Assembly (NCBI RefSeq): GCF_963921235.1
Contig: NC_086108.1
Location: forward strand, 310,001 to 374,000
Direction of reading: 5' to 3'
From: Mobula hypostoma
Taxonomy: Eukaryota
Length of the DNA: 64,000 nucleotides
This document shows positions 822 to 52,820 of the stretch, piece by piece. The translations under genes and the position numbers were made by a program. How positions within the stretch are numbered: position 1 is the stretch's first letter; each line of letters begins with the position of its first letter. The notes under the pieces are model-generated. The model made no database searches, was not told the DNA's origin, and worked only from the letters and a program-made list of their open reading frames with translations.

Positions 822-830
822 CAGTACTGT

Positions 831-1445
831 TTGAGTACTGTTGGGGGGGACAGCTTACCCGGGGGAAGCGACAGTGGCCCTGCCTCCGGCACAGAGTCTG
901 GCCCTGTAGCTCAGAAGGGTAGGGCAAGGAAGAGGAGGGCAGTTGTGATAGGGGACTCGATAGTAAGGGGGTCAGATAGGCGATTCTGTGGACGCAGTCC
1001 AGAGACTCGGATGGTAGTTTGCCTCCCTGGTGCCAGGGTCCGGGATATTTCTGATCGTGTCCAAGATATCCTGAAGTGGGAGGGTGAAGAGCCAGAGGTC
1101 CTGGTACATATAGGTACCAATGACATAGGTAGGAAAAGGGATGAGGTCCTGAAAGAAGAATATAGGGAGCTAGGAAGGGAGTTGAGAAAAAGGACCGCAA
1201 AGGTAGTAATCTCGGGATTACTGCCTGTGCCACGCGACAGTGAGAGTAGGAATGCGATGAGGTGGAGGATAAATGCGTGGCTGAGGGATTGGAGCAGGGG
1301 GCAGGGATTCAAGTTTTTGGATCATTGGGACCTCTTTTGGCGCAGGTGTGACCTGTACAAAAAGGACGGGTTACACTTAAATCCTCGGGGGACCAATATC
1401 CTGGCAGGGAGATTAGCGGGGGCTACTGAGGTGACTTTAAACTAG
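831..1445 (+). CDS. CR1 ORF1 C-terminal SGNH/GDSL esterase domain (partial)
   Basis: Motifs VIGDSIVRG, CLPGARV, HIGTND and DGLHLN; ends TTA AAC TAG. Confidence 0.9.
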   Translation: MSTVGGDSLPGGSDSGPASGTESGPVAQKGRARKRRAVVIGDSIVRGSDRRFCGRSPETRMVVCLPGARVRDISDRVQDILKWEGEEPEVLVHIGTNDIGRKRDEVLKEEYRELGRELRKRTAKVVISGLLPVPRDSESRNAMRWRINAWLRDWSRGQGFKFLDHWDLFWRRCDLYKKDGLHLNPRGTNILAGRLAGATEVTLN

Positions 1446-4400
1446 AATGGTTGGGGGGTGGGAATCAAATTAAAGCGGCTAGGTGTGAGGAGGTTAGTTC
1501 ACAACAGAGGGATGGGAACCAGTGCAGAGAGACAGAGGGGTGTAAAGTGAGCGTAGAAGCAAAAAGTACAAAGGGGAAAAGTAAAAGTGGCAGGCCGACA
1601 AATCCAGGGCAAGCATTAAAAAGGGCTAAGAGAGTTGTAAAAGAGTGCCTGAAGGCTTTATGTGTCAATGCAAGGAGCATTCGTAATAAGGTGGATGAAT
1701 TGAAAGTGCAGATTGTTATTAATGATTATGATATAGTTGGGATCACAGAGACATGGCTCCAGGGTGACCAGGGATGGGAGCTCAACGTTCAGGGATATTC
1801 AATATTCAGGAGGGATAGACACGAAGGAAGGGGAGGTGGGGTGGCGTTGCTGGTTAAAAAAGAGATTAACGCAATAGAAAGGAAGGACATAAGCCGGGAA
1901 GATGTGGAATCGATATGGGTAGAGCTGCGTAACACTAAGGGGCAGAAGACGCTGGTGGGAGTTGTGTACAGGCCACCTAACAGTAGTAGTGAGGTCGGAG
2001 ATGGTATTAAACAGGAAATTAGAAATGTGTGCAATAAAGGAACAGCAGTTATAATGGGTGACTTCAATCTACATGTAGACTGGGTGAACCAAATTGGTAA
2101 AGGTGCTGAGGAAGAGGATTTCTTGGAATGTATGCGGGATGGTTTTTTGAACCAACATGTCGAGGAACCGACTAGAGAGCAGGCTATTCTGGACTGGGTT
2201 TTGAGCAATGAGGAAGGGTTAATTAGCGATCTTGTCGTGAGAGGCCCCTTGGGTAAGAGTGACCATAATATGGTGGAATTCTTCATTAACATGGAGAGTG
2301 ACGTAGTTAATTCAGAAACAAAGGTTCTGAACTTAAAGAGGGGTAACTTTGAAGGTATGAGACATGAATTAGCTAAGATAGACTGGCAAATGACACTTCA
2401 AGGATTGACGGTGGATATGCAATGGCAGGCATTTAAAGGTTGCATGGATGAACTACAACAATTGTTCATCCCAGTTTGGCAAAAGAATAAATCAAGGAAG
2501 GTAGTGCACCCGTGGCTGACAAGAGAAATTAGGGATAGTATCAATTCCAAAGAAGTAGCATACAAATTAGCCAGAGAAAGTGGCTCACCTGAGGACTGGG
2601 AGAAATTCAGAGTTCAGCAGAGGAGGACAAAGGGCTTAATTAGGAAGGGGAAAAAAGATTATGAGAGAAAACTGGCAGAGAACATAAAAACGGACTGTAA
2701 AAGCTTTTATAGATATGTAAAAAGGAAAAGACTGATAAAGACAAATGTAGGTCCCCTGCAAACAGAAACAGGTGAATTGATTATGGGGAGCAAGGACATG
2801 GCAGACCAATTGAATAATTACTTTGGTTCTGTCTTCACTAAGGAGGACATAAATAATCTTCCAGAAATAGTAAGGGACAGAGGGTCCAGTGAGATGGAGG
2901 AACTGAGCGAAATACATGTTAGTAGGGAAGTGGTGTTAGGTAAATTGAAGGGATTGAAGGCAGATAAATCCCCAGGGCCAGATGGTCTGCATCCCAGAGT
3001 GCTTAAGGAAGTGGCCCAAGAAATAGTGGATGCATTAGTGATAATTTTTCAAAACTCGTTAGATTCTGGACTAGTTCCTGAGGATTGGAGGGTGGCTAAT
3101 GTAACCCCACTTTTTAAAAAAGGAGGGAGAGAGAAACCGGGGAATTATAGGCCGGTTAGCCTAACGTCGGTGGTGGGGAAACTGCTGGAGTCAGTTATCA
3201 AGGATGTGATAACAGCACATTTGGAAAGCGGTGAAATGATCGGACAAAGTCAGCATGGATTTGTGAAAGGAAAATCATGTCTGACGAATCTCATAGAATT
3301 TTTTGAGGATGTAACTAGTAGAGTGGATAGGGGAGAACCAGTGGATGTGGTATATTTGGATTTTCAAAAGGCTTTTGACAAGGTCCCACATAGGAGATTA
3401 GTGTGCAAACTTAAAGCACACGGTATTGGGGGTAAGGTATTGGTGTGGGTGGAGAATTGGTTAGCAGACAGGAAGCAAAGAGTGGGAATAAACGGGACCT
3501 TTTCAGAATGGCAGGCGGTGACTAGTGGGGTACCGCAAGGCTCAGTGCTGGGACCCCAGTTGTTTACAATATATATTAATGACTTGGATGAGGGAATTAA
3601 ATGCAGCATCTCCAAGTTTGCGGATGACACGAAGCTGGGTGGCAGTGTTAGCAGTGAGGAGGATGCTAAGAGGATGCAGGGTGACTTGGATAGGTTGGGT
3701 GAGTGGGCAAACTCATGGCAGATGCAATTTAATGTGGATAAATGTGAAGTTATCCACTTTGGTGGCAAAAATAGGAAAACAGATTATTATCTGAATGGTG
3801 GCCGATTAGGAAAAGGGGAGGTGCAACGAGACCTGGGTGTCATTATACACCAGTCATTGAAAGTGGGCATGCAGGTACAGCAGGCGGTGAAAAAGGCGAA
3901 CGGTATGCTGGCATTTATAGCGAGAGGATTCGAGTACAGGAGCAGGGAGGTACTACTGCAGTTGTACAAGGCCTTGGTGAGACCACACCTGGAGTATTGT
4001 GTGCAGTTTTGGTCCCCTAATCTGAGGAAAGACATCTTTGCCATAGAGGGAGTACAAAGAAGGTTCACCAGATTGATTCCTGGGATGGCAGGTCTTTCAT
4101 ATGAAGAAAGACTGGATGAACTGGGCTTGTACTCGTTGGAATTTAGAAGATTGAGGGGGGATCTGATTGAAACGTATAAGATCCTAAAGGGATTGGACAG
4201 GCTAGATGCGGGAAGATTGTTCCCGATGTTGGGGAGGTCTAGAACGAGGGGTCACAGTTTGAGGATAGAGGGGAAGCCTTTTAGGACCGAGGTTAGGAAA
4301 AACTTCTTCACACAGAGAGTGGTGAATCTGTGGAATTCTCTGCCACAGCAAACTGTTGAGGCCAGTTCATTAGCTATGTTTAAAAGGAAGTTAGATATGG

Positions 4401-4450
4401 CCCTTGTGGCTACAGGGGTCAGGGGGTATGGAGGGAAGGCTGGGTTCTGA
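1430..4450 (+). CDS. CR1 ORF2: AP-endonuclease plus reverse transcriptase, no AUG before the EN domain
   Basis: NARSI, TETW, YRPP, MGDFN and SDH (EN); KSPGPDG, YRPVSL, DFQKAFD, GVPQGSVLGP and FADD (RT). Frame opens at 1430 after TGA 1427-1429; first ATG at 2054. Confidence 0.95.
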   Translation, partial: GDFKLEWLGGGNQIKAARCEEVSSQQRDGNQCRETEGCKVSVEAKSTKGKSKSGRPTNPGQALKRAKRVVKECLKALCVNARSIRNKVDELKVQIVINDYDIVGITETWLQGDQGWELNVQGYSIFRRDRHEGRGGGVALLVKKEINAIERKDISREDVESIWVELRNTKGQKTLVGVVYRPPNSSSEVGDGIKQEIRNVCNKGTAVIMGDFNLHVDWVNQIGKGAEEEDFLECMRDGFLNQHVEEPTREQAILDWVLSNEEGLISDLVVRGPLGKSDHNMVEFFINMESDVVNSETKVLNLKRGNFEGMRHELAKIDWQMTLQGLTVDMQWQAFKGCMDELQQLFIPVWQKNKSRKVVHPWLTREIRDSINSKEVAYKLARESGSPEDWEKFRVQQRRTKGLIRKGKKDYERKLAENIKTDCKSFYRYVKRKRLIKTNVGPLQTETGELIMGSKDMADQLNNYFGSVFTKEDINNLPEIVRDRGSSEMEELSEIHVSREVVLGKLKGLKADKSPGPDGLHPRVLKEVAQEIVDALVIIFQNSLDSGLVPEDWRVANVTPLFKKGGREKPGNYRPVSLTSVVGKLLESVIKDVITAHLESGEMIGQSQHGFVKGKSCLTNLIEFFEDVTSRVDRGEPVDVVYLDFQKAFDKVPHRRLVCKLKAHGIGGKVLVWVENWLADRKQRVGINGTFSEWQAVTSGVPQGSVLGPQLFTIYINDLDEGIKCSISKFADDTKLGGSVSSEEDAKRMQGDLDRLGEWANSWQMQFNVDKCEVIHFGGKNRKTDYYLNGGRLGKGEVQRDLGVIIHQSLKVGMQVQQAVKKANGMLAFIARGFEYRSREVLLQLYKALVRPHLEYCVQFWSPNLRKDIFAIEGVQRRFTRLIPGMAGLSYEERLDELGLYSLEFRRLRGDLIETYKILKGLDRLDAGRLFPMLGRSRTRGHSLRIEGKPFRTEVRKNFFTQRVVNLWNSLPQQTVEASSLAMFKRKLDMALVATGVRGYGGKAGF
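1436..1445 (+). promoter_or_regulatory. Candidate -1 ribosomal frameshift slippery site U_UUA_AAC followed by UAG
   Basis: X_XXY_YYZ heptamer phased on the last two ORF1 codons; a -1 slip enters ORF2. Confidence 0.6.
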
Positions 4451-4659
4451 GTTGGATGATCAGCCATGATCATAATAAATGGCGGTGCAGGCTCGAAGGG
4501 CCGAATGGCCTACTCCTGCACCTATTTTCTATGTTTCTATGTTTCTATGTTTCTATATGGTCTTAAGCACATTCTCTACTACCCCTCTATAATCCCTCCC
4601 CAATCCTTTCACCCTCTTTCTAATCCCACACCACTTCCCCACTACCCACAACACAATTG

Positions 4660-6789: not shown

Positions 6790-8640
6790 AGTCAAGATTG
6801 GGAATTAAATATCCAAGGATATCAGGTTATACGGTTTGATAGGCAGAAAGGCAAGGGAGGTGGGGTAGCGCTCTAAGGATGAGATCAGTGCGACAGTGAG
6901 AGACGATATAAGATCTAAGGAGCAGAATGTTGAGTCCACCTAGGTAGAGATTAGGAACAGTAAGGGAAAAAAAAATCATTGGTGGGAGTTGTCGATCAGC
7001 CACCAAATAATAACATTACTTGGTTACAGTGTCACAGGCAATAAACAGAAATATCTCAGGCATGTAAGAATGGAATAGCAGTTATCATGGGAGACTAACT
7101 TGCACATAGATTGGGTGAATCAAGTTGGTCGAGACAGTCTTGTGGAGGACTTCATAGAACGCATAAATGATGGCTTTCTTGAACAGCGTGTTACTTAACC
7201 TACAAGAGAATGTGTTGTCTTAGATCTGGTCCTGTGCAATGAGAAAGGTAAAATTAGTGATCTTGTAGTTAGGGATCCTCTTGGAAAGAGTGATCACAGT
7301 ATGACTGAGTTTCCCATACAAATGGAGGGTGCAAAAGTAGTCTGGGAACACAGGCTATATGGTGGGACTATTGAGGAGCAGTGGAAGACTTTCAAAGAGA
7401 TTTGTCACGGTGCTCAACAAAAGTATATTCCAGTTAAAAGCAAGGACAGTAAGGGTGGGGAGAGCCAGTCTTGGATAACTAAGGAAATTAAAGAAGGTGT
7501 TAAACTAAAAGCATGTGAATAGAAAGCCACCAAGAGGAGTGGGAAACTGGAAGACTGGAAAAATTTCAAAAAGCAACAAAGACCCATCAAGCAACTAATA
7601 AAGAAAGGGAATAAGGAAAGAAAATAAACTAAAATTCTCTGGATTGTGGGCAGGTTCTGGTGGATTAGAAGACAGCGAATGTCACGCCACTGTTCAAAAA
7701 ATGATGTAGGCAAAAGCAGGTAACTACAGGTCAGTTAGTTTAACATCTGTAGTTGGGAAAATGCTTGAAGCTATCATTAAAGAAGAGATAGCGAGACATC
7801 TGCCAAGAAATGGATCCATCAGGCAGATGCAGCATGGATTCAGCAAAGGCAGATCCTATTTGACAAACTTACAGGAGTTCTTTCAGGATATAACAAGTGC
7901 AGTGGATAGAGGGGAATAGATGGACATTATTTACTTGGATTTCTGGAAGGTGTTTGATAAGGTGCTGCATAAAAGACTTAGCCATAAGATAAGGATGCAA
8001 AGAGTTGGGGTGATGTATTAGCATGGATACAGGATTGGTTAATTGAAAGAAAGCAGAGTTGGGATACATGGGTGTTACTCTGGTTGGCAATCAGTGTGAG
8101 CGGTGGTGCCATATGGGTAGGTGCTGGGCCTGCAACTGTTCGCGATATATATTAACGATCTCGAAGAGGGAATCGAGTATAGTGCATCGCTTAAGTTTGC
8201 TGATGGTACCAAATTGAGTGGAAAAGTAAATTGTGCAGAAGATACAGAGAGATATGTATAGATAGGTTAAGTGAGTGGGCAAGGGTCTGGCAGATGGAGC
8301 ACAATGTTGGTAAATGCGAGGTCATCCACTTTGGAAGGAAAAATGGAAGAGCAGATTATTATTTAAACTGTAAAAATTTCCAGCATACTGCTATGCTGAG
8401 GGACTTGGGAGTACTTGTGCATGAATCACAAAAGGTTGGTTTGCAGGTGCAGCAGGCTATCATGAAAGCAAATGGAATACAGTATTGGCCTTCATTACGA
8501 GAGGGACTGAATTGAAGAGCAGGGAAGTTAAGCTGTAACTGTACAGGGTACTGGTGAGGCTGCACCTGGAGTACTACATGCAGTTCTGGTCTCCATACTT
8601 GAGGAAGGATTTACTGGCTTTGGAGGCAGTTTGATGGTCA
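6790..8640 (+). mobile_element. Old fragmented CR1 ORF2 (EN-RT)
   Basis: Remnants of GKGGGVAL, PLGKSDH, KFADGTK and GKCEVIHFG with many stops and frameshifts. Confidence 0.8.
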
Positions 8641-25649: not shown

Positions 25650-27285
25650 ACACATAGAAACAAAGAAAATCTATAGCACAATACAGGCCCTTTGGCCCAC
25701 AAAGCTGTGCCGAACATGTCCCTACCTTAGAAATTACCTCGGGTTACCCATAGCCCTCTATTTTTCTAAGCTCCATGTTCCTACCCAGGAGTCTCTTAAG
25801 AGACCGTTTTGTTTCCGCCTCCACCACCACCGCCAGCAGCCCATTCCATGCACTCACCACTCTCTGCATGGAAAAACTTACCCCTGACATCTCCTCTGTA
25901 CCTACTTCCAAGCACCTTAAAACTATGCCCTCTCATGCTAGCCAGTTCAGCCCTGGGGAAAAGCCTCTGACTATGCACACAATCAATGCTTCTGATTATC
26001 TTGTACACCTCTATCAGCCACCTCTCATCCTCTGTCGCTCCAAGGAGATAGGGCTGAATTCACTCAATCTATTCTCACAAGGCATGCCCTCCAATCCAGG
26101 CAACCTCCTTGTAAATCTCCTCTGCACCCTTTCTACAGTTTCCACATCCTTCTATAGTGAGGTGACCAGAATTGAGTGCAGTACTCCAAGTGGGGTCTGA
26201 CCAGGGTCCTAAGGAGCTGCAACATTACCTCTCGGCTCTTAAATTCAATCCCACGATTGACGAAGGCCAATGCACTGTATGCCTTCTTAACCACAGAGTC
26301 AACCTGCGTAGCAGCTTTGAGTGTCCTATGGACTCAGACCCCAAGACCCCTCTGATCCTCCACACCACCAAGAGTCATCATTAATACTATATTCTGCCAA
26401 CATATTTGACCCACCAAAATGAACCACCTCACACTTATCTGGGTTGAACGCCATCTGCCGTTTCTCAGCCCAGTTTTGCATCCTATCAATGTCCCACTGT
26501 AACCTCTGACAGCCATCCACACTGTCCACAACACACCCAACCTTTGTGTCATCAGCAAATTTACTAACCCACCCCTCCACTTCCTCATCCAGGTCATTTA
26601 TAAAAATCACAAAGAGTAGGGGTCCCAGAACAGATCCCTGAGGCACACCACTGGTCGCCGGCCTTCATGCAGAATATGACCTGTCTACAACCAGTCTTTG
26701 CCTTCTGTGGGCAAGCCAGTTCTAGATCCACAAAGCAACGTCCCCTTGGATCCCATGTCTCCTTACTTTCTCAATAAGCCTTGCATGGGATATCTTATCA
26801 AATGGCTTGCTAAAATCCATGTACACTACATCTACTGCTCCACCTTCTTCAATGTGCTTAGTCACATCCTCAAAAAATTCAGTCAGTATGTAGGGCACGC
26901 CTGCCTTTGACAAAGCCGTGCTGACTATTTCTAATCATATTATGCCTCTCCAAATGTTCACAAATCCTGCCTCTCAGGATCTTCTCCATCAACTTACCAA
27001 CCACTGAAGTAAGACTCACTGACTTATAATTTCCTGGGCTATCTCTACTCCCTTTCTTGAATAAGGGAACAACATCCGCTACTCTCCAATCCTCCGGAGT
27101 CTCTCCTGTCCTCATTGATGATGCTTGCTTCCCACAGTAGCCTGGGGTACATCCCGTCTGGTCCCGGTGACTTATTCAACTTGATGCTTTCCTAAAGCTC
27201 CAGCACATCCTCTTCCTTAATATCTACATGCTCAAGCTTTTCAGTCCACTACAAGTCATCCCTACAATCACCAAGATCCTTTTCC
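25650..27285 (-). mobile_element. CR1 ORF2 3' portion, degenerate
   Basis: PEDWRVADVVPLFKKG, MDFSKPFD, PQGSVLGP and FADD on the minus strand; tail near 25655. Confidence 0.9.
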
Positions 27286-31709: not shown

Positions 31710-32654
31710 TGAAGAGATTTTAGAGTCTACTTTATCAAAAAAGGATTTTGGAACAAAAATTGGTAATGCCTGAAATATACATAAACATTTTGGCAGAATA
31801 AACATCTTAACAGCATTAATGCGACCAGTCAAAGTTAAATAAAGTGGAGACCATTTAACGGAAAGTTGTGTGATATTGTCAATTGAGGGTAAATAATCAG
31901 CCTTAAATAAAGCCTTATGTTTACAGGTAATTTTAATCCCAAGATATGAAAAATGATTATTAACCAATCTAAACAGCAGGTTCTGATATAAGGGAACTTG
32001 CTTATTAATAGGGAAAAATTCACTCTTATTAAGATTTAATTTGTATCCTGAAAAAAGACTAAATTGGGCTAATAAATCTAGAGCTGCTGGGATAGATTTT
32101 TGAGGATTGGAAATATATCATCAGCATAAAGTGATACTTTATGAGACTTTAACCCACGAGTTATATCAATAATGTTAGGAGATTCTCGAATAGCAATTGC
32201 TAGTGGTTCTAATGCTATATCAGATACAAAGGGCTAAGAGGACACCCTTGTCTGGTACCTCGAAATAGAGGGGAAAAAGGTGAGTTTTCAGTATTATTAT
32301 GAACTGATGCCATAGCTGTGTACATACATCTATTGATGCTTCTGGACACATCCTCAGTGATGTTCCTGGAATCATCGGGAGTTTTGGGTCTTTCAACATC
32401 ATACAACCTCCTCCAGGTGACCCAGCCGGGGCTGATCAGACCCCAGCCTGTGTCCAGATGACTAGCTACTTATGACTCCATGGCTCCCCTCTTTTGAGCC
32501 ACAGCCATCCTGAGGCCCTCTCTGCCACATCGGTGGTACTGCGGATGGCTCTCCTCTTCCTCTTTTTTCCCCAACAATATCGCAGCCACCACCCTGCGAC
32601 CTGACATTGTCCTAGTGTCTGAGTCGACTAAGCAAGTGGTGCTGCTGGAGCTGC

Positions 32655-35580
32655 AGGGAACATAAAAACTAACTGTAAAAGCTTTTAAAGATATGTAAAA
32701 AGGAAAAGACTGGTAAAGACAAATGTAGGTCCCCTACAGACAGAAACAGGTGAATTGATTATGGGGAGTAAGGACATGGCAGACCAATTGAATAATTACT
32801 TTGGTTCTGTCTTCACTAAGGAGGACATAAATAATCTTCCAGAAATAGTAGGGAACAGAGGGTCCAGTGAGATGGAAGAACTGAGTGAAATACATGTTAG
32901 TAGGGAAGTGGTGTTAGGTAAATTGAAGGGATTGAAGGCAGATAAATCCCCAGGGCCAGATGGTCTGCATCCTAGAGTGCTTAAGGAAGTAGCCCAAGAA
33001 ATAGTGGATGCATTAGTGATAATTTTTCAAAACTCGTTAAATTCTGGACTAGTTCCTGAGGATTGGAGGGTGGCTAATGTAACCCCACTTTTTAAAAAAG
33101 GAGGGAGAGAGAAACCGGGGAATTATAGACCGGTTAGCCTAACGTCGGTGGTGGGGAAACTGCTGGAGTCAGTTATCAAAGATGTGATAACAGCACATTT
33201 GGAAAGCGGTTAAAACATTGGACAAAGTCAGCATGGATTTGTGAAAGGAAAATCATGTCTGACGAATCTCATAGAATTTTTTGAGGATGTAACTAGTAGA
33301 GTGGATAGGGGAGAACCAGTGGATGTGGTATATTTGGATTTTCAAAAGGCTTTTGACAAGGTCCCACACAGGAGATTAGTGTGCAAACTTAAAGCACACA
33401 GTATTGGGGGTAAGGTATTGATGTGGATGGAGAATTGGTTAGCAGACAGGAAGCAAAGAGTGGGAATAAACGGGACCTTTTCAGAATGGCAGGCGGTGAC
33501 TAGTGGGGTACCGCAAGGCTCAGTGCTGGGACCCCAGTTGTTTACAATATATATTAATGACTTGGATGAGGGAATTAAATGCAGCATCTCCAAGTTTGCG
33601 GATGACACGAAGCTGGGTGGCAGTGTTAGCTGTGAGGAGGATGCTAAGAGGATGCAGAGTGACTTGGATAGGTTGGGTGAGTGGGCAAATTCATGGCAGA
33701 TGCAATTTAATGTGGATAAGTGTGAAGTTATCCACTTTGGTGGCAGAAATAGGAAAACAGATTATTATCTGAATGGTGGCGGATTAGGAAAAGGGGAGGT
33801 GCAACGAGATCTGGGTGTCATTATACACCAGTCATTGAAAGTGGGCATGCAGGTACAGCAGGCGGTGAAAAAGGCGAATGGTATGCTGGCATTTATAGCG
33901 AGAGGATTCGAGTACAGGAGCAGGGAGGTACTACTGCAGTTGTACAAGGCCTTGGTGAGACCACACCTGGAGTATTGTGTGCAGTTTTGGTCCCCTAATC
34001 TGAGGAAAGACATCCTTGCCATAGAGGGAGTACAAAGAAGGTTCACCAGATTGATTCCTGGGATGGCAGGACTTTCATATGAAGAAAGACTGGATGAACT
34101 GAGCTTGTACTTGTTGGAATTTAGAAGATTGAGGGGCGATCTGATTGAAACGTATAAAATCCTAAAGGGATTGGGCAGGCTAGATGCAGGAAGATTGTTC
34201 CCGATGTTGGGGAAGTCCAGAACGAGGGGTCACAGTTTGAGGATAAAGGGGAAGCCTTTTAGAAACATAGAAACATAGAAACATAGAAAACAGGTGCAGG
34301 AGTAGGCCATTCGGCCCTTCGAGCCTGCACCGCCATTTATTATGATCATGGCTGATCATCCAACTGAGAACCCCGCCCCAGCCTTCCCTCCATACCCCCT
34401 GACCCCTGTAGCCACAAGGGCCATATCTAACTCCCTCTTAAACATAGCCAATGAACTGGCCTCAACAGTTTCCTGTGGCAGAGAATTCCACAGATTCACC
34501 ACTCTCTGTGTGAAGAAGTTTTTCCTAATCTTGGTCCTAAATGGCTTCCCCTCTATCCTCAAACTGTGACCCCTCGTTCTGGACTTCCCCAACATCGGGA
34601 ACAATCTTCCTGCATCTAGCCTGTCCAATCCCTTTAGGATCTTATACGTTTCAATCAGATCCCCCCTCAATCTTCTAAATTCCAACGAGTACAAGCCCAG
34701 TTCATCCAGTCTTTCTTCATATGAAAGTCCTGCCATCCCAGGAATCAATCTGGTGAACCTTCTTTGTACTCCCTCTATGACAAAGATGTCTTTCCTCAGA
34801 TTAGGGGACCAAAACTGCACACAATACTCCAGGTGTGGTCTCACCAAGGCCTTGTACAACTGCAGTAGTACCTCCCTGCTCCTGTACTCGAATCCTCTCA
34901 CTATAAATGCCAGCATACCATTCGCCTTTTTCACCGCCTGCTGTACCTGCATGCCCACTTTCAATGACTGGTGTATAATGATACCCAGGTCTTGTTGCAC
35001 CTCCCCTTTTCCTAATCGGCCACCATTCAGATAATAATCTGTTTTCCTATTTTTGCCACCAAAGTGGATAACTTCACATTTATCCACATTAAATTGCATC
35101 TGCCATGAGTTTGCCCACTCACCCAACCTATCCAAGTCACTCTGCATCCTCTTAGCATCCTCCTCACTGCTAACACTGCCACCCAGCTTCGTGTCATCCG
35201 CAAACTTGGAGATGCTGCATTTAATTCCCTCATCCAAGTCATTAATATATATTGTAAACAACTGGGGTCCCAGCACTGAGCCTTGCGGTACCCCACTAGT
35301 CACCGCAGGACCGAGATTAGGAAAAACTTCTTCACACAGAGAGTGGTGAATCTGTGGAATTCTCTGCCACAGGAAACAGTTGAGGCCAGTTCATTGGCTA
35401 TATTTAAGAGGGAGTTAGATATGGCCCTTGTGGCTACGGGGATCAGGGGGTATGGAGGGAAGGCTGGGGCGGGGTTCTGAGTTGGATGATCAGCCATGAT
35501 CATAATAAATGGCGGTGCAGGCTCGAAGGGCCGAATGGCCTACTTCTGCACCTATTTTCTATGTTTCTATGTTTCTATGT
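32655..35580 (+). mobile_element. CR1 (same young subfamily as 822-4554), split at 34262/35307 by an inverted copy
   Basis: Closely similar to 2680-4554; premature TAA at 33211-33213; resumes aggaccgag at 35307; TTCTATGT tail ends at about 35580. Confidence 0.92.
34263..35306 (-). mobile_element. 5'-truncated CR1 inserted in reverse orientation into the preceding CR1
   Basis: ORF 34356-35303 (GVPQGSVLGP, FADD); inverted tail (agaaacat)n at 34261-34290; candidate TSD AG. Confidence 0.92.
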
Positions 35581-38159
35581 TTGCTCTCTCCCTCGATGCC
35601 CAAAATGCTGAAGGCTGTAACTAAAGAATGGGCTACGAATCCCCTACAACCAACCTCCACTGGGAGACACCTCGCTCTCCATCCAGCCTGCTGACAGTTG
35701 CTGACCAGTCCTGCGTACTTGGAGAGCTTCCTTTCAAAGGCCTATCTAAGCTATCTTCCCATGGGACTGTCAGCTCCAGCAGCACCACTTGCTTAGTCGA
35801 CTCAGACACTAGGACAATGTCAGGTCGCAGGGTGGTGGCTGCGATATTGTTGGGGAACTTCAGCTGCCCTTCGAGGTCCACCAACAGCTGCCAGTCCCTA
35901 GCAGAGGTCAGAATGCCTGCAGATGGAGAATGGTATAACAATTTAATCCAGGTTATACATTTCAGGCTGAAATTAAACATTTCAAGCACCTTAAATAAGT
36001 AGGGCCATTCAGCCCTGTCAAAGGCTTTTTCAGCGTCTAGGGAAATGACGCATTCAGGATCGGTTTGTGACGGGGTATAGACAATATTTAGAAGTGTACG
36101 AATATTATAAAAAGAATAGCGATTCTTAATAAAACCCGTTTGATCTTCCGAAATAATATAAAGAAGTGCTTTTTTCTAGTCTATTTGCTAATAATTTAGA
36201 AAAAGTCTTGGAGTCAACATTTAACAAGGATATTGGTCTATAAGATGCACATTGAGCAGGGTCTTTATCCTTCTTTAATATTAAAGAGATCAATGCTCTA
36301 TAAAAGGATTCTGGTAGTTTACCAACTTTTAATGAGGCCTCCAGAACCCTGGATAACCAGGGGACTAATGAGGGTGCAAAAGATTTAAAACATTCTACGA
36401 TAAACCCGTCAAGGCCAGGAGCTATCTCCGAGTTCATATAGAAAATAGCATTCTTAATCTCATCAGTAGTGAAGGAAGTTTCTAACATAGAACATATATC
36501 GTGTGATATCTTAGGGAAGTCTAGGTTATCTAAAAAGTCACACATATGTTTAGAATCTCATGGAGATTCTGCTTAATATAAAGAGGAATAAAAATCAAAG
36601 AAGGATTGATTAATCTCAGCTTGATCAAACGTCAGTTGATCTTTTTGATTATAAATCTGATTAACTTGAAGTTTAATAGAATTAGTCTTCAACTGATTAG
36701 CCAACAGTTTACCAACTTTGTCACTATGTATATAAAATTCACTTCTTGTCTTCGTGAATTGGTTTGCAATAGAGGACGAAGGTAATGAACTGTGTTCCAT
36801 TTGAAGTTCAGTTCTTTGTTTATACAGCTTCTCAGAAGGAGCTGTAGCATATTTCTTATCTATTTCCTTAATCTTGTCCACAAGAGCAAGCTCTTCCTTC
36901 TTCAACCTTTTCCTCAAAGCAGCAGCGTACGAAATAATCTGGCCACAAACATAAGCTTTGAAGGAATCCCAAAGGGTGTTCACGGATATATCCTCTGTAC
37001 TGTTAATTGTGAAAAAAAGATCAATTTGTTCATTCATGAAGTTAACAAAATCCAAGTCCTGAAGAAACAGCGAATTAAAACGCCATTGTCTATTGTTATG
37101 AGCATTGGCCAATAATTTAATAGAAAGCTCAAGTGGAGCATGGTCCAAAATGGTTATAGAGTCATATTCACATTTAACTACTGAAGAAATAAGACGAGAG
37201 TCAATAAAAATAATCAATTCTTGAGTAAAAGTGATGAAGAGGCACAAAGATCAGCTGCTTCACCACCATTCAGGTTACATCCCAGCTGGAACATTACCTT
37301 CCTCTTCTCAGGACTCCAAACACATTCTGGCCAACCATTGCCCAATGGATCTCTGCTCAAAGGGGCCCCTACTCAGGACTTTCTCCACCTGGAACGAGAG
37401 GACAGGGCTGCACTCCACCGTAGCAGAACATTCAGATAGAGCATCAAAGTCAGAGTCCAGTCCACTGTCTCACACACACAAGTACATGTATGAACACAGG
37501 TGCAATGAAACGCTTGCTGCAGCATCACAGACACGTGGCATCAGATGAGCTGTATTCACCAGAAAAACATCAATCATACAGTTTTTTTTACAAGGAAGCA
37601 CAACTAGAATAAAATAAAGCTCAGACTGAGAGCAAAGTGCTCATAGTGATTAGGGTTTTAACCAGTTGGGTCAATAACTGAATATTTTAAGGAAAGTAGT
37701 TGTTCTTGAACCTGGTGGTGGGAGATTTAGGAGCTAAGAGGGAAGATGACTAAAGTATATAAAACTGTGGGACATAGAGATAGGGTGGTGTTGGTATTGG
37801 CATTAACTTCTGCAAAGGTAGATGTCAAGTCTTCACTTAGAACAGCAGTTCCCAACCTGGGGTCCATGGACCTCTCAATGGGAAGCCTCCATAGCATAAG
37901 AAAGGTTGGGAGCCCCTGACTTAGAACAGTACACATCTCCTGCCTCCACACAATGGCAATGTCTTCAGTTTCTCGTTGGACCAATCCTTCCCCCTGTGGA
38001 GCTCTCAGTATTTGTTGTAAGCCACCCTCTCTTCGGTTCAGCCTACTCTGTATGCTCCTCTACCTCCCTGGATTTTGATTTGGGAATTGCTTCTTTTCTT
38101 GGTTTATACTCATTCTCGCTGCTCCTTCAATCACTCGCACACCTTCAAGTAACTCCCTG

Positions 38160-39738
38160 GCCTTTAGCATTATCATGGAAAAGCATAGAATCAGACAGCA
38201 CAGGAACATTTTTAATTGGGGAAGGGCAAATTATGAGGCTATAAGACTAGAACTTGCAGGTGTGAATTGGGATGATGTTTTTGCAGGGAAATGTACTATG
38301 GACATGTGGTCGATGTTTAGAGATCTCTTGCAGGATGTTAGGGATAAATTTGTCCCGGTGAGGAAGATAAAGAACAGTAGGGTGAAGGAACCATGGGTGA
38401 CAAGTGAGGTGGAAAATCTAGTCAGGTGGAAGAAGGCAGCATACATGAGGTTTAGGAAGCAAGAATCAGATGGGTCTATTGAGGAATATAGAGAAGCAAG
38501 AAAGGAGCTTAAGAAGGGTCTGAGAAGAGCAAGAAGGGGGCATGAGAAAGTCTTGGTGAGTAGGGTAAAGGAAACCCCCAAGGCATTCTTCAATTATGTG
38601 AAGAAAAAAAGGATGACAGGAGTGAAGGTAGGACCGATTAGAGATAAAGGTGGGAAGATGTGCCTGCAGGCTGTGGAAGCGAGTGAGGTCCTCAATGAAT
38701 ACTTCTCTTCGGTATTCACCAATGAGAGGGAACTTGATGATGGTGAAGACAATATGAGTGAGGTTGATGTTCTGGAGCATGTTGATATTAAGGGAGAGGA
38801 GGTGTTAGAGTTGTTAAAATACATTAGGATGGATAAGTCCCCGGGGACGGAATATTCCCCAGGCTGCTCCACGAGGCGAGGGAGGAGATTGCTGAGCCTC
38901 TGGCTAGGATCTTTATGTCCTCGTTGTCCACGGGAATGGTACCGGAGGATTGGAGGGAAGCGAATGCTGTTCCCTTGTTCAAAAAAGGTAGTACGGATAG
39001 TCCGGGTAATTATAGACCAGTGAGCCTTATGTTTATGGTGGGAAAGCTGTTGGAAAAGATTCTTAAAGAGAGCATATATGGGCATTTAGAGAATCATGGT
39101 CTGATCGGGGGCAATCAGCATGGCTTTGTGAAGGGCAGATCGTGTCTAACAAGCCTGATAGAGTTCTTTGAGGAGGTGACCAGGCATATAGATGAGGGTA
39201 GTAAAGTGGATGTGATCTATATGGATTTTAGTAAGGCATTTGACAAGGTTCCACAGAGTAGGCTTATTCAGAAAGTCAGAAGGCATGGGATCGAGGGAAA
39301 TTTGGCCAGGTGGATTCAGAATTGGCTTGCCTGCAGAAGGCAGAGGGTGGTGGTGGAGGGAGTATATTCAGATTGGAGGGTTGTGACTAGTGGTGTCCCA
39401 CAAGGACCTGTTCTGGGACCTCTACTTTTCGTGATTTTTATTAACGACCTGGATGTGGGGGTAGAGGGGTGGGTTGGCAAGTTTGCAGATGACACAAAGG
39501 TTGGTGGTGTTGTAGATAGTGTAGAGGATTGTCGAAGATTTCAGAGAGACATTGATAGGATGCAGAAGTGGGCTGAGAAGTGGCAAATGGAGTTCAACCC
39601 GGAGAAGTGTGAGGTGGTACACTTTGGAAGGACAAACTCCAAGGCAGAGTACAAAGTAAATGGCAGGATACTTGGTAGTGTGGAGGAGCAGAGGGATCTG
39701 GGGGTACATGTCCACAGATCCCTGAAAGTTGTCTCACA
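38160..39738 (+). mobile_element. CR1 ORF2 middle portion (different subfamily), 3' end missing
   Basis: ORFs 38175-39023 and 38915-39790 with MDFSKAFD, GVPQGPVLGP and FADD. Confidence 0.9.
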
Positions 39739-45929: not shown

Positions 45930-48420
45930 TCCATATAACCATAACAGCACAGAAACAGGCCATCTCGGCCCTTCTAGTCCATGCCAAACTCACCTAGTCC
46001 CACCAACCTGCATTCAGCCCATAACCCTCCATTCCTATCCTGTCCATATATCTATCCAATTTAACTTTAAATGACAACATCGAACCTGCCTTAACCACTT
46101 CTGCTGGAAGCTCGTTCCACACAGCTACCACTCTCTGAGTAAAGAAGTTCCCCCTCATGTTACCCCTAAACTTTTGTCCTTCAACTCTCAACTCATGTCC
46201 TCTTGTTTCAATCTCCCCCATTCTCAATGGAAAAAGCCTATCCACGTCAACTCTATCAATCCCCCTCATAATTTTAAACACCTCTATCAAGTCCCCCCTC
46301 AACCTTCTACACTCCAAAGAATAAAGACCTAACTTGTTCAATCTTTCTCTGTAACTTAGGAGATGAAACCCAGGCAACATTTTAGTAAACCTCCTCTGTT
46401 CTCTCAATTTTATTGACATCTTTTCTATAATTCGGTGACCAGAACTGTACACAATACAATGTCTTATACAAATTCAACATTACATCCCAACTCCTATACT
46501 CAATGCTCTGATTTATAAAGGCCAGCATACCAAAAGCTTTCTTCACCACCCTATCCACCCTATTCCTAGATCCTGCTGTTCTACAGCATTCTTCAATGCC
46601 CCACCATTTACCATGTATGTCCTATTTTGATTAGTTCTACCAAAATGTAGCACCTCACATTTTTCAGCATTAAACTCCATCTGCCATCTTTCAGCCCACT
46701 CTTCTAACTGGCCTAAATCTCTCTGCAAACTTTGAAAACCTACTTCATCATCCACAACACCACCTATCTTAGTATCATCTGCATACTTACTAATCCAATT
46801 TATCACCCCATCATCCAGATCATTAATATATATGACAAACAACACTGGACCCAGTACAGATCCCTGAGGCACACCGCTACACACCGTCCTCCAATCTGAC
46901 ACACAGTTATCCACCACTACTCTCTGGCGTCTCCCATCTAGCCACTGCTGAATCCATTTTACTACTTCGATATTAATGCCTAACCATTGAACCTTCCTAA
47001 CTAACCTTCCATGTGGACCCCTGTCAAAGGCTTTACTGAAGTCCGTATAGACAATATCCACCACTTTACCCTTGTCAACTTTCTTAGTAACCTCTTCAAA
47101 AAATTCAGTAAGATTTGTCAAACCTGACCTTCCACACAGCAATCCATGTTGACGGTTCCTAATCAGACCCTGTCTATCCAGATAATTAAATATACCTCTC
47201 TAAGAATACTTTCCATCAATTTACCCACCACTGACGTCAAACTCACTGACGTAAACCTAGCATAATTGCTAGGTTTACACTTAGAACCCTTTTTAAACAA
47301 TGGAACCACATGAGCCAATCCTCCAGCACCATTCCAAGCACCGTAAAACTGTGCCCTCTCGTCTTAGCCATTTCAGCCCTGGGAAAAAGCCTCTGACTAT
47401 CCAGAAGATCAATGCCTCTCATCATCTTATACACCTCTATCAGGTCACCTCTCATTCTCCGCCGCTCCAAGGAGAAAAGACCGAGTTCACTCAGCATGAT
47501 CCCCAATCCAGGTACATCCTTGTAAATCTCCTCTGCACCCTTTCTATGGTTTCCACATCCTTCCTATAGCGAGGCGACCAGAACTGAGCAGAGTACTCCA
47601 AGTGGGGTCTGACCAGGGTCCTATATACCTGCAACATTACCCCTTGGCTCTAAACTCAATCCCACGGTTGATGAAGGTCAATACACTGTATGCTTTCATA
47701 ACCACAGAGCCAACCTGCACAGCAGCTTTGAGCATCCTATGGACTTGGACCCCAAGATCCCTCTGATCCCCCACACTGTCAAGAGTCTTTTTCTTCATTA
47801 ATCTTTTTATTAATTAAAAAAAAGCATAAATACAATCAAGAGGAGAATTCATTCAAATATATATATCAGTCACAATATAATCCAAGATTAAGAAAGACAT
47901 TGTCAAAATCATAGATATTGTTAAACTAGTATAAAATATATAGTAAAAAAATGAAAATAACAATTCTCTTAGCAGTTTATGGAGAGAAAGGAAAAAACAT
48001 TGGGTTTTAAATGAAAAGGAAAAGAAAACCCACTACACTAAACAAAACAAAACAAAAAAAAAGGACTGGGCATTCCATTTTGAGGATACGATCAAAAAAG
48101 AAAGAAAGAAAGACTTTCTGATCAAATCTAAAACTTTGAAATAAAGACTGAAAGATTAATAAACAATTAAATGAAAATATTGGATAAAAGGTCGCCATAT
48201 TGCTAAGAGCCTGACCATTCATACTATATTCAGTCATCATATTTGACCGACCAAAATGAACCACCTCTCACTTATCTACGTTGAACTTCATCTGTCACTT
48301 CTCAGCCCAGTTTTGCATCCTATCAATGTCCCGCTATTCACACTGTCCACAACCCTGCCAATCATTGTGTCATCCGCAAATTTACTAACCTATACCTCCA
48401 CTTCCTCATCCAGGTCAATT
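45930..48420 (-). mobile_element. Two adjacent CR1 fragments; the second is interrupted by an L1 3' end (about 47788-48200)
   Basis: YADD/FADD RT motifs; A-rich L1 tail with diverged TSD tgtcaagagtct / tgctaagagcct. Confidence 0.8.
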
Positions 48421-50963: not shown

Positions 50964-52820
50964 CATAATATCGAAAAGGATACTAAAAGCTTTTTCAAGT
51001 ATATAAAGAGTAAAAGACAGGTGAGAGTAGATATAGAACTGATAGAAAATGATACTGGAGAAATTGTAATGGGAGATGAGGAGATGGCAGAGGAACTGAA
51101 CAAGTATTTTGCATCAGTCTTCACTGAGGAAGACAGCAGTATACCGGACACTCAAGGGTGGCAGGGAAGAGAAGTGTGCGCGGTCACAATTACGATAGAG
51201 AAAGTACTCAGGAAGCTGAATAGGCTAAAGGTCAATAAATCTCCTGGACCAGATGAAATGCACCCTCGTGTTCTGAAGGAAGTAGCTGTGGAGATTGCGG
51301 AGGCATTAGCGATGATCTTCAAAAGTCGATAGATTCTGGCATGGTTCCGGAGGACTGGAAGATTGCAAATGTCACTCCGCTATTTAAGAAGGGGGCAAGG
51401 AAGCAAAAAGGAAATTATAGACCTGTTAGCTTGACGTCGGTGGTTGGGAAGTTGTTGGAGTCGATTGTCAAGGATGAGGTTACGGAGTACCTGGAGGCAT
51501 ATGACAAGATAGGCAGAACTCAGCATGGATTCCTTAAAGGAAAATCCTGCCTGACAAACCTATTACAATTTTTTGAGGAAATTACAAGTAGGTTAGACAA
51601 GGGAGATGCAGTGGATGTTGTATATTTGGATTTTCAGAAGGCCTTTGACAAGGTGCCACACATGAGGCTGCTTAACAAGATAAGAGCCCATGGAATTACA
51701 GGAAAGTTACATATGTGGATAGAGTGTTGGCTGATTGGCAGGAAACAGAGAGTGGGAATAAAGGGATCCTATTCTGGTTGGCTGCCAGTTACCAGTGGTG
51801 TTCCACAGGGATCAGTGTTGGGGCCGCTTCTTTTTACATTGTACATCAATGATTTGGATTATGGAATAGAGGGCTTTGTGGCTAAGTTTGCTGACGATAC
51901 GAAGATAGGTGGAGGGGCCGGTAGTGCTGAGGAAATGGAGAATCTGCAGAGAGACTTGGATAGATTGGAAGAATGGGCAGAGAAGTGGCAAATGAAGTAC
52001 AATGTTGGAAAGTGTATGGTTATGCACTTTGGCAGAAAAAATAAACGGGCAGACTATTATTTAAATGGGGAAAGAATTCAAAGTTCTGAGATGCAACGGG
52101 ACTTGGGAGTCCTCGTACAGGATTCCCTTAAAGTTAACCTCCAGGTTGAGTCAGTAGTGAAGAAGGCGAATGCAATGTTGGCATTCATTTCTAGAGGAAT
52201 AGAGTATAGGAGCAGAGATGTGATGTTGAGGCTCTATAAGGCGCTGGTGAGACTTCACTTGGAGTACTGTGGGCAGTTTTGGTCTCCTTATTTAAGAAAG
52301 GATGTGCTGACGTTGGAGAGGGTACAGAGAAGATTCACTAGAATGATTCCGGGAATGAGAGGGTTAACGTATGAGGAACGTTTGTCCGCTCTTGGACTGT
52401 ATTCCTTGGAGTTTAGAAGAATGAGAGGAGACCTCATAGAAACATTTCGAATGTTGAAAGGCATGGACAGAGTGGATGTGGCAAAGTTGTTTCCCATGAT
52501 GGGGGAGTCTAGTACGAGAGGGCATGACTTCAGGATTGAAGGGCGCCCTTTCAGAACAGAAATGCAAAAAAAATTTTTTAGTCAGAGGGTGGTGAATCTA
52601 TGGAATTTGTTGCCACGGGCAGCAGTGGAGGCCAAGTCATTGGGTGTCTTTAAGGCAGAGATTGATAGGTATCTGAGTAGCCAGGGCATCAAAGGTTATG
52701 GTGAGAAGGCGGGGGAGTGGGACTAAATAGGATAAAATGGATCAGCTCATGATAAAATGGCGGAGCAGACTCCATGGGCCGAATGGCCTACTTCTGCTCC
52801 TTTGTCTTATGGTCTTATGG
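50964..52820 (+). mobile_element. 5'-truncated CR1, RT largely open with one frameshift near 51320
   Basis: ORFs 50952-51332 and 51341-52726; (TCTTATGG)n tail. Confidence 0.92.

Follow-up and report, generated by a model that had tools for sequence, protein, structure and literature searches.

A conserved, ORF1-phased U_UUA_AAC heptamer at the ORF1/ORF2 junction of CR1-type LINEs as a candidate site of programmed –1 frameshifting

CR1 elements, a group of long interspersed nuclear elements (LINEs), dominate among the transposons of birds, reptiles and cartilaginous fish. We analysed the junction between the two open reading frames (ORFs) of a CR1-type LINE that lies in a 64,000-nt stretch of the Mobula hypostoma genome (contig NC_086108.1 of assembly GCF_963921235.1, positions 310,001 to 374,000 of the forward strand; this whole stretch is called the window below, and coordinates are positions in it). 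Comparison of sequences suggests that programmed –1 ribosomal frameshifting at the ORF1/ORF2 junction is the best explanation of its organization, and we put the probability of this reading at roughly 65%. A conserved slip site, in phase with ORF1 and placed at the ORF1 stop codon, yields a specific hypothesis that covers all of CR1.

Translation of ORF2 from bicistronic LINE RNAs is called open, and ‘interesting and important’, in the relevant section of a 2013 review, a section in which frameshifting is never mentioned (PMC3894237). The part of a recoding review that deals with elements lacking long terminal repeats (non-LTR elements) gives only HeT-A, TART and L1 (PMC5009743). In SART1 of Bombyx, restart of translation at a UAAUG overlap depends on a downstream RNA element, according to the passages on it in PMC3708506 and PMC3894237. 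SART1 and human L1 (see the L1 passage of PMC5009743) resemble CR1 in that ORF2 is coupled to the end of ORF1 on a bicistronic RNA, and one of the CR1 families described below, family E, has UAAUG too. The family of the window copy, family A, differs from both elements: its ORF2 frame contains no AUG ahead of the endonuclease (EN) domain, and it carries a conserved phased heptamer that is neither present nor needed in SART1 and L1. For the TRE5-A and TRE3-A elements of Dictyostelium, ORF2 is said to require a –1 frameshift in the part of PMC5911963 that treats their ORFs. Like CR1, these are non-LTR elements whose ORFs overlap and whose ORF2 occupies the –1 frame, but they belong to another clade and live in another host; no conserved heptamer is described in that part, whereas the CR1 signal can be traced across vertebrate lineages. 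A full-text literature search returned no paper proposing –1 frameshifting in CR1; an earlier statement in Haas 1997/2001, Kajikawa 1997 or Kapitonov & Jurka 2003 is possible.

Outside the LINEs, the junction can be set beside recoding sites of RNA viruses and retroelements. Coronaviruses slip at U_UUA_AAC and arteriviruses at G_UUA_AAC. Their ORF1a/1b junctions share the heptamer (identical in coronaviruses) and its phasing with CR1, and, as in CR1, the polymerase ORF lies downstream in the –1 frame. A stable pseudoknot follows after ~5–7 nt in these viruses and the 0-frame stop is not adjacent; CR1, in contrast, has no predicted stable fold, an adjacent stop and a G-run at a fixed distance, and the element that hosts it belongs to the cellular LINEs and not to the RNA viruses. 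In luteoviruses and dianthoviruses (barley yellow dwarf virus with GGGUUUU-UAG, red clover necrotic mosaic virus), the stop codon of the upstream ORF stands directly behind the slip heptamer, as it does in CR1, but these viruses use an adjacent bulged stem-loop and long-distance pairing, and nothing comparable is predicted in CR1. Gag-Pol expression in retroviruses and LTR elements (for example avian leukosis virus gag-pol, as treated in part of PMC11835228) follows the same logic of an abundant first protein, structural or RNA-binding, and a rare reverse transcriptase (RT) fusion in a ratio set by slippage. CR1 differs in being a non-LTR element with target-primed reverse transcription, in having an esterase/coiled-coil ORF1 protein (ORF1p) and not Gag, and in having no protease to release Pol.

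In the window copy, a frame check on the plus strand gives the ORF1 codons at the junction as ...GTG ACT TTA AAC TAG. The heptamer T_TTA_AAC (1436–1442, plus strand) has the X_XXY_YYZ form phased on the upstream ORF, and the ORF1 stop codon TAG (1443–1445) abuts its 3′ side. The –1 frame is closed by a TGA at 1427–1429 and is thereafter open from 1430 to 4450; this is ORF2, with 1006 codons and a 16-nt overlap with ORF1. No ATG occurs in this frame until 2054, a position within EN and past the NARS, TETW and YRPP motifs. An ATG at 1447 belongs to the +1 frame and meets a stop after 8 codons (MVGGWESN*). The G-rich GGTTGGGGGGTGGG (1449–1462) begins 6 nt 3′ of the heptamer. Its conserved part is the G-run GGGGGGTGGG at 1453–1462 on the plus strand, which a 7-nt spacer (1446–1452) separates from the stop. 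An initial annotation, made from these letters alone, had the run begin at 1449; its coordinates, phase, overlap, late AUG, out-of-frame AUG and G-rich run all proved correct. TTTAAAC is found 13 times in the window, 7 times on the plus and 6 times on the minus strand. As the heptamer alone is this common, the case rests on what exceeds chance, namely the phase in which it is read, its position at the ORF1 stop and the fact that it is conserved.

According to the frameshift reading, a fraction of the ribosomes that translate ORF1 of full-length family copies would slip back by one nucleotide at U_UUA_AAC, with the ORF1 stop directly 3′ of the heptamer and the G-run 7 nt beyond the stop. Translation by the slipped ribosomes would carry on as …TLN-LEWLGGGNQ… in the –1 frame, and the product would be a fusion of ORF1p, EN and RT of ~1313 aa, with …TLNLEWLGGGNQIK, …LAGATEVTLNLEWLGGGNQIK as the expected transframe junction peptide. 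The remaining majority would terminate and release the 311-aa ORF1p. The outcome would be a fixed low ORF2:ORF1 ratio and delivery of EN-RT into ORF1p assemblies, like that of retroviral Gag-Pol. The initial annotation had proposed a functional slip site and a fusion protein of this kind. The comparative conservation described below strongly supports that proposal; the slippage itself, its efficiency, the fusion product and the roles of the G-run and the stop are inferred. The peptide that it predicted, ...EVT(L/F)-K/N-LEWLGGGNQ, should be amended, as standard tandem slippage would give ...EVTLN-LEWLGGGNQ instead.

We looked at the conservation of the junction within the genome (3.48 Gb searched). 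A Pfam esterase search yielded 29,326 candidates, of which 150 were scored, and follow-up searches led to five families. Their ORF1 ends read …GTG ACT TTA AAC TAG in family A, …GAG AGT TTA AAC TAG in family B, …GAG GGT TTA AAC TAA in family C, …AGG GCT TTA AAC TAA in family D and …GAA GAT TTA AAC TAA in family E. Family A comprises subfamilies with 90–98.5% identity and an in-frame 27-nt indel in the linker that leads to EN. The tail of family B is 84–87% identical to that of A up to ~1504 and unalignable beyond, with EN about half identical by eye; the ORF2 linker of family E is A-like. The heptamer and the stop are intact in 104 of 116 copies (42/46 in A, 20/23 in B, 26/29 in C, 14/16 in D and 2/2 in E), a tally that omits 30 junction loci chosen by identity. 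EN is in the –1 frame in all five families, which differ in the ORF1 tail, the linker or both, and in the better-kept copies this frame is unbroken from the heptamer to EN. In 10 of 12 representative copies, it opens just 1–5 codons 5′ of the heptamer, and it stays open for ~57–90 codons up to EN across linkers that are mutually unalignable. Family B was considered as a refutation, its two first copies having a TGA ten codons past the slip site. We rejected this: at the position of the TGA, 22 copies of the family have CGA (13), CAA (2) or TGA (7), a mixture that points to CpG decay of an open frame.

Family A itself is abundant and young. A 301-nt junction query has at least 1341 candidate matches in the genome, and all 40 of those scored are 100% identical. 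Among the 30 junction loci fetched, a 311-codon ORF1 starts from ATG in 13 and ORF2 is open to the end of the locus in 28; none has an in-frame ATG before EN. Contigs of uncertain kind from four runs and four organisms (at least 80% likeness) gave 40 listed variant rows at 1331–1429 and 1476–1575 and none at 1430–1475, with 8 further rows beyond those listed; this gap lends the frameshift reading weak support. The same contigs contain no joint or indel at the junction, and contigs of this sort cannot reveal RNA-level correction. A search for RNA records covering the stretch listed none.

The junction is also conserved outside the genome. The 311-aa ORF1p has 168 relatives, of which 120 were listed, down to ~30% identity and from rays, skates, sharks, coelacanth, frogs, turtles, squamates, alligator and birds; the closest named protein among the matches listed is from a devil ray (99%). 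A C-terminal Leu-Asn (LN) is present in 87 of the 120 listed homologues, and 84 of the 93 proteins with a DGLHL-like motif within the last 45 residues end in LN. Scanning metagenome contigs with C-terminal pieces of ORF1, we found eight loci. Six of them reach the end of ORF1, with bird/reptile-like tails (…LIERALN*), and all six read [GT]CT TTA AAC TAG. In loci L120, L121 and L123, no stop closes the –1 frame between the heptamer and EN (QLKCIYTNARSM…); L122 has one stop there, the sequence of L119 breaks off and that of L124 has decayed. When seven lineages are aligned on the heptamer without gaps, 18 of 85 columns are invariant. The longest invariant run is TTTAAACTA and the second-longest is GGGGG at offsets +17 to +21, and only 2 of the 45 columns upstream of the heptamer are invariant. 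The heptamer stays fixed across lineages whose ORF1 tails are 31–45% identical. The stop abuts it in every lineage, as TAG in A, B and the metagenome loci and as TAA in C, D and E. The initial annotation had suggested that ORF1/ORF2 junctions of CR1 families be aligned; compared in this way, five families and bird/reptile-like contigs retain TTTAAAC with its stop, its phase and ORF2 in the –1 frame.

Several listed ORF1 relatives are misnamed (P0021, P0026, P0068 and P0069). A record called ‘SGNH/GDSL hydrolase [Pseudomonas aeruginosa]’ is 60% identical to the ray ORF1 and is likely host DNA in a bacterial record, and ‘40S ribosomal protein S24 isoform X2’ and ‘transmembrane protein 204 isoforms’ are LINE pieces within gene models. 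A stingray protein, P0036, reads …ASREG-FKLNLQ… from ORF1 straight into the –1 frame and EN. We rejected it as evidence of frameshifting, as it is the gene model of one copy and represents an in-frame fusion or a corrected model.

Judging by codon choice at the junction, conservation acts on nucleotides and not on protein. Six codons precede the heptamer in one lineage or another (ACT, AGT, GGT, GCT, TCT and GAT); they encode five amino acids, and the third letter is always T. The Leu codon of the heptamer is always TTA, although only 5 of the 28 Leu codons in the ORF1 of family A, and 2 of the 47 in the ORF1 pieces from metagenomes, are TTA. Both Gly codons in the G-run are always GGG. In the 87 LN-ending proteins, the residue at position –3 is G (25), A (22), T (11), S (10), C (6), Y (5), D (3), E (3), F (1) or I (1), so that an NNU codon is possible in 84 of them; E, K, Q, M and W together make up 20% of residues overall in these proteins. 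With a remoter ORF1 (P0118) as query, 29 proteins were obtained, 13 of which end in Gly-Asn (GN). Here, position –3 is Q (10), K (1), V (1) or A (1): a G-ending codon is possible in 13 of 13 and a U-ending codon is impossible in 11. The change of residue class at –3 between LN and GN ends (Fisher test, P-value 1.9e–10, uncorrected for relatedness) fits what U_UUA_AAC and G_GGA_AAC, respectively, would need. Tandem slippage depends on the X position, here U, for the P-site tRNA to re-pair. When a ribosome terminates, the same position would fall outside both its P site and its E site, and the constraint on this position is the best separator of frameshifting from reinitiation. The proteins of the Q-G-N-ending clade (P0118 and P0123–P0140) come from ENA/Logan contigs. 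DNA of the GN clade was not found among genome contigs (48 pattern matches, 0 confirmed) or viral contigs (21 pattern matches, 0 confirmed), and the ray genome yielded no GN family (best identity 40%; the 8 places fetched all belong to family C).

The region 3′ of the stop is constrained in spacing. In 7 of 7 lineages, the GGGGG begins exactly 10 nt past the heptamer, or 7 nt past the stop, with family D equally spaced, and the spacer (columns +10 to +16 of the seven-lineage alignment) is constant in length and variable in sequence. We speculate that a shift with the stop codon in the A site would make this spacer a canonical 7 nt. Rfam contains no frameshift element matching the region; two weak unrelated matches were returned, the best with an E-value of 0.72. 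With quadruplexes allowed in folding, a two-layer G-quadruplex is predicted in A, C and L124 and not in B, L120, L121 and L122. We give even odds to a more specific proposal. In it, the vertebrate CR1 cassette of U_UUA_AAC, adjacent stop, 7-nt spacer and G5 would predate the split of rays and amniotes and make a –1 fusion; a remoter clade would have swapped to G_GGA_AAC while adjusting the preceding codon; and the stimulator would be the unstructured G-run acting with the stop, for example through ribosome contact or slow termination, with no helix or pseudoknot.

A number of observations weigh against frameshifting. No stable stem-loop or pseudoknot was found in nine folds of 78–148 nt from families A, B and C (z-scores from –0.15 to +1.61), and on these z-scores a conventional stimulatory helix was rejected. 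A G-quadruplex as general stimulator was rejected too, with 3 of 7 lineages predicted to form one; the quadruplex stimulator put forward in the initial annotation is not supported as a general feature, though the G-run keeps a fixed distance. The usual stimulator is therefore missing, and the role of the G-run in recoding is a guess. The stop that is always adjacent is not needed by a plain slip site, whereas a termination-coupled mechanism does need it. Families in one genome swap modules near the junction and hence are not fully independent witnesses, as the metagenome lineages are. The proteins compared at position –3 form related clusters, so that the P-value overstates their independence and the LN/GN difference may reflect one historical switch; moreover, the GN clade is known here from proteins alone. 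The –1-frame residues FKL are fixed by the same letters, and conservation of the heptamer could partly reflect –1 coding. Finally, the absence of a start in the downstream ORF is limited to some lineages. In families A and B, ORF2 runs on from the heptamer to EN with no ATG in its frame. Other lineages do have one: as UAAUG in family E, as UAGACAUG in L121 and L123 and as UAGGUAUG in L124, and further downstream at about codon 16 in D, at index 22 in L120 and at index 38 in C. The initial annotation had named an in-frame AUG before EN as an argument against frameshifting, and this argument applies to C, D, E, L120, L121, L123 and L124 but not to A and B.

These AUGs could be restart codons in termination-coupled reinitiation, which we regard as the strongest rival, possible if rather unlikely. 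A fraction of the ribosomes would remain bound after ending ORF1 at its stop and restart a few nucleotides away in the –1 frame, at an AUG in lineages that have one and at a non-AUG codon in the others, as has been proposed for human L1; the G-run would hold or stall the post-termination ribosome, and ORF2p would be a separate protein. A stop that adjoins the conserved block in every lineage suits this mechanism well. The UAAUG of family E is the stop-start overlap shown for SART1, and in L121, L123 and L124 an AUG of the ORF2 frame follows the stop at a distance of 2 nt; an AUG is thus found at the stop in ~3 independent lineages of ~10, against ~5% per lineage expected by chance on our own estimate. 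In addition, many of the G-runs contain UGGGA, which is the core of the calicivirus termination upstream ribosomal binding site (TURBS) motif. However, a restart AUG at or near the stop in the ORF2 frame is confined to E, L121, L123 and L124: A, B, C, D, L119/L122 and L120 have neither such an AUG nor a common near-cognate codon there. Where an AUG does stand near the stop, it uses three different frames among lineages (+1 in A, 0 in L119/L122), and B, C, D and L120 have none. Reinitiation leaves unexplained the invariance of UUUAAAC, of the rare Leu codon TTA and of the wobble T of the six preceding codons, as well as the LN/GN switch at –3, and it too would have to do without a stable downstream structure. 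Nevertheless, termination-reinitiation may operate in some lineages, or in all of them with the AUG dispensable as in human L1. In family E copies L145 and L146, the UAAUG overlap stands right behind the same slippery heptamer.

Independent internal initiation of ORF2 (IRES-like, that is, at an internal ribosome entry site, by leaky scanning or from a non-AUG start in the linker), with the heptamer kept only by the needs of both proteins (Leu-Asn at the C-terminus of ORF1p) or by shared ancestry, is improbable. A section of PMC3894237 describes ORF2 translation in two-ORF non-LTR elements as unresolved, which leaves room for such a route, and C, D and L120 have in-frame AUGs in the linker. Yet these AUGs are at differing, unconserved positions and are missing from A and B. 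A protein motif could account for the C-terminal LN, but it does not explain invariance at the level of codons (TTA, AAC, NNT). Besides, internal initiation would leave the –1 frame needlessly open back to the heptamer in unalignable linkers (A, B, C, D and the bird-like lineages), and 60–70 stop-free codons have a probability of ~0.05 per lineage by our own estimate. That the heptamer is a functionless product of chance or a neutral relic at the stop is scarcely credible: TTTAAAC is frequent on both strands of the window and the window copy is dead, but the heptamer is fixed in phase and place across lineages with the ORF1 tail identity given above, while its flanks vary, and most listed homologues share the LN end.

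If frameshifting is indeed used, Gag-Pol-style control of protein ratio would extend to LINEs, and an ORF1p-ORF2p fusion would change the picture of CR1 particles and of cis-preference. The site would be one without conventional RNA structure, and, on the more specific proposal above, the G-run with the stop would represent a new kind of eukaryotic –1 stimulator. For annotation, pipelines could merge CR1 ORF1 and ORF2 at this point and not label ORF2 as start-less or ‘frameshifted’.

The junction may have a further role in the history of these elements. From a degenerate second G-run motif onward (GAGGGATGGGAAC, 1506–1518, plus strand), which is the point where A turns from B-like to E-like, family A matches the linker of family E (…QGDGNKCRETEGCK…; loci L052 and L145). 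Family A looks like a B/E recombinant in the region 1428–1520, with ORF1 common to A and B and ORF2 common to A and E, and the conserved junction may be a hotspot of module exchange.

The window copy is a 5′-truncated and very young member of family A at 827–4556 on the plus strand, delimited by alignment to the full-length copy L001 and by the octamer array at its 3′ end. Positions 827–3100 are 99.9% identical to L001 (2 mismatches in 2274 nt), and the match begins 318 nt into ORF1. The ORF1 remnant (827–1445, plus strand; frame open from 810) was assigned by frame and domain search to an SGNH/GDSL esterase domain. It has no start codon, hence the window copy itself cannot be expressed from an ORF1 AUG; though very young, it is inert, a truncated dead copy. 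Its ORF2 on the plus strand includes EN at ~1706–2266 and RT at ~3125–3778, as located by Pfam. The intact ORF1 encodes 311 aa (L001:711–1643); besides the esterase domain (Lipase_GDSL_2, E-value 3e–16, residues 146–294), its product has a Cys motif at the N-terminus and a stretch resembling a coiled coil. In ORF2, an apurinic/apyrimidinic (APE)-type endonuclease (Exo_endo_phos, E-value 3e–12, residues 93–279) precedes the reverse transcriptase (RVT_1, E-value 1.1e–33, residues 566–783), as in CR1-type LINEs. An esterase-class ORF1 with Cys motif and coiled coil is a CR1-like feature; esterase-class ORF1 is described for CR1-like and L2 elements in the corresponding part of PMC3905857. The 3′ end is a short-repeat tail of CR1 type, (TTCTATGT)x3 at 4527–4550 on the plus strand, with no poly(A); the abstract of PMC2612034 gives the CR1 octamer as TTCTGTGA. 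By these features, the element is a CR1-type LINE, and its assignment to CR1 as against L2 is based solely on the relatives of ORF1 and on the tail. In the 5′ untranslated region of full-length family A (L001 300–620), a unit of ~175 nt is directly repeated (…CTCCAACGGCTTTCTGAGAGGCGGGACTGCGCAGGCG…TTTAAAAGG…), an arrangement that recalls monomeric LINE promoters.

The window also contains other CR1-like remnants. RT fragments 64–69% identical to the main copy lie at 7631–8609, 26403–27098, 38933–39627, 46283–47153 and 50984–52819, and none of these five reaches the ORF1/ORF2 junction. At 560–826, the 3′ end of an older CR1-like element shows 72–76% identity to 4232–4384, and the young copy begins directly behind it. 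Another copy of family A, 94–97% identical and covering element positions 2675–4552, occupies 32653–35582 and is split at 34262/35307. The piece that splits it (34260–35306) is a second family A fragment in opposite orientation with element positions 3515–4555, and the arrangement represents either a nested insertion or an inversion.

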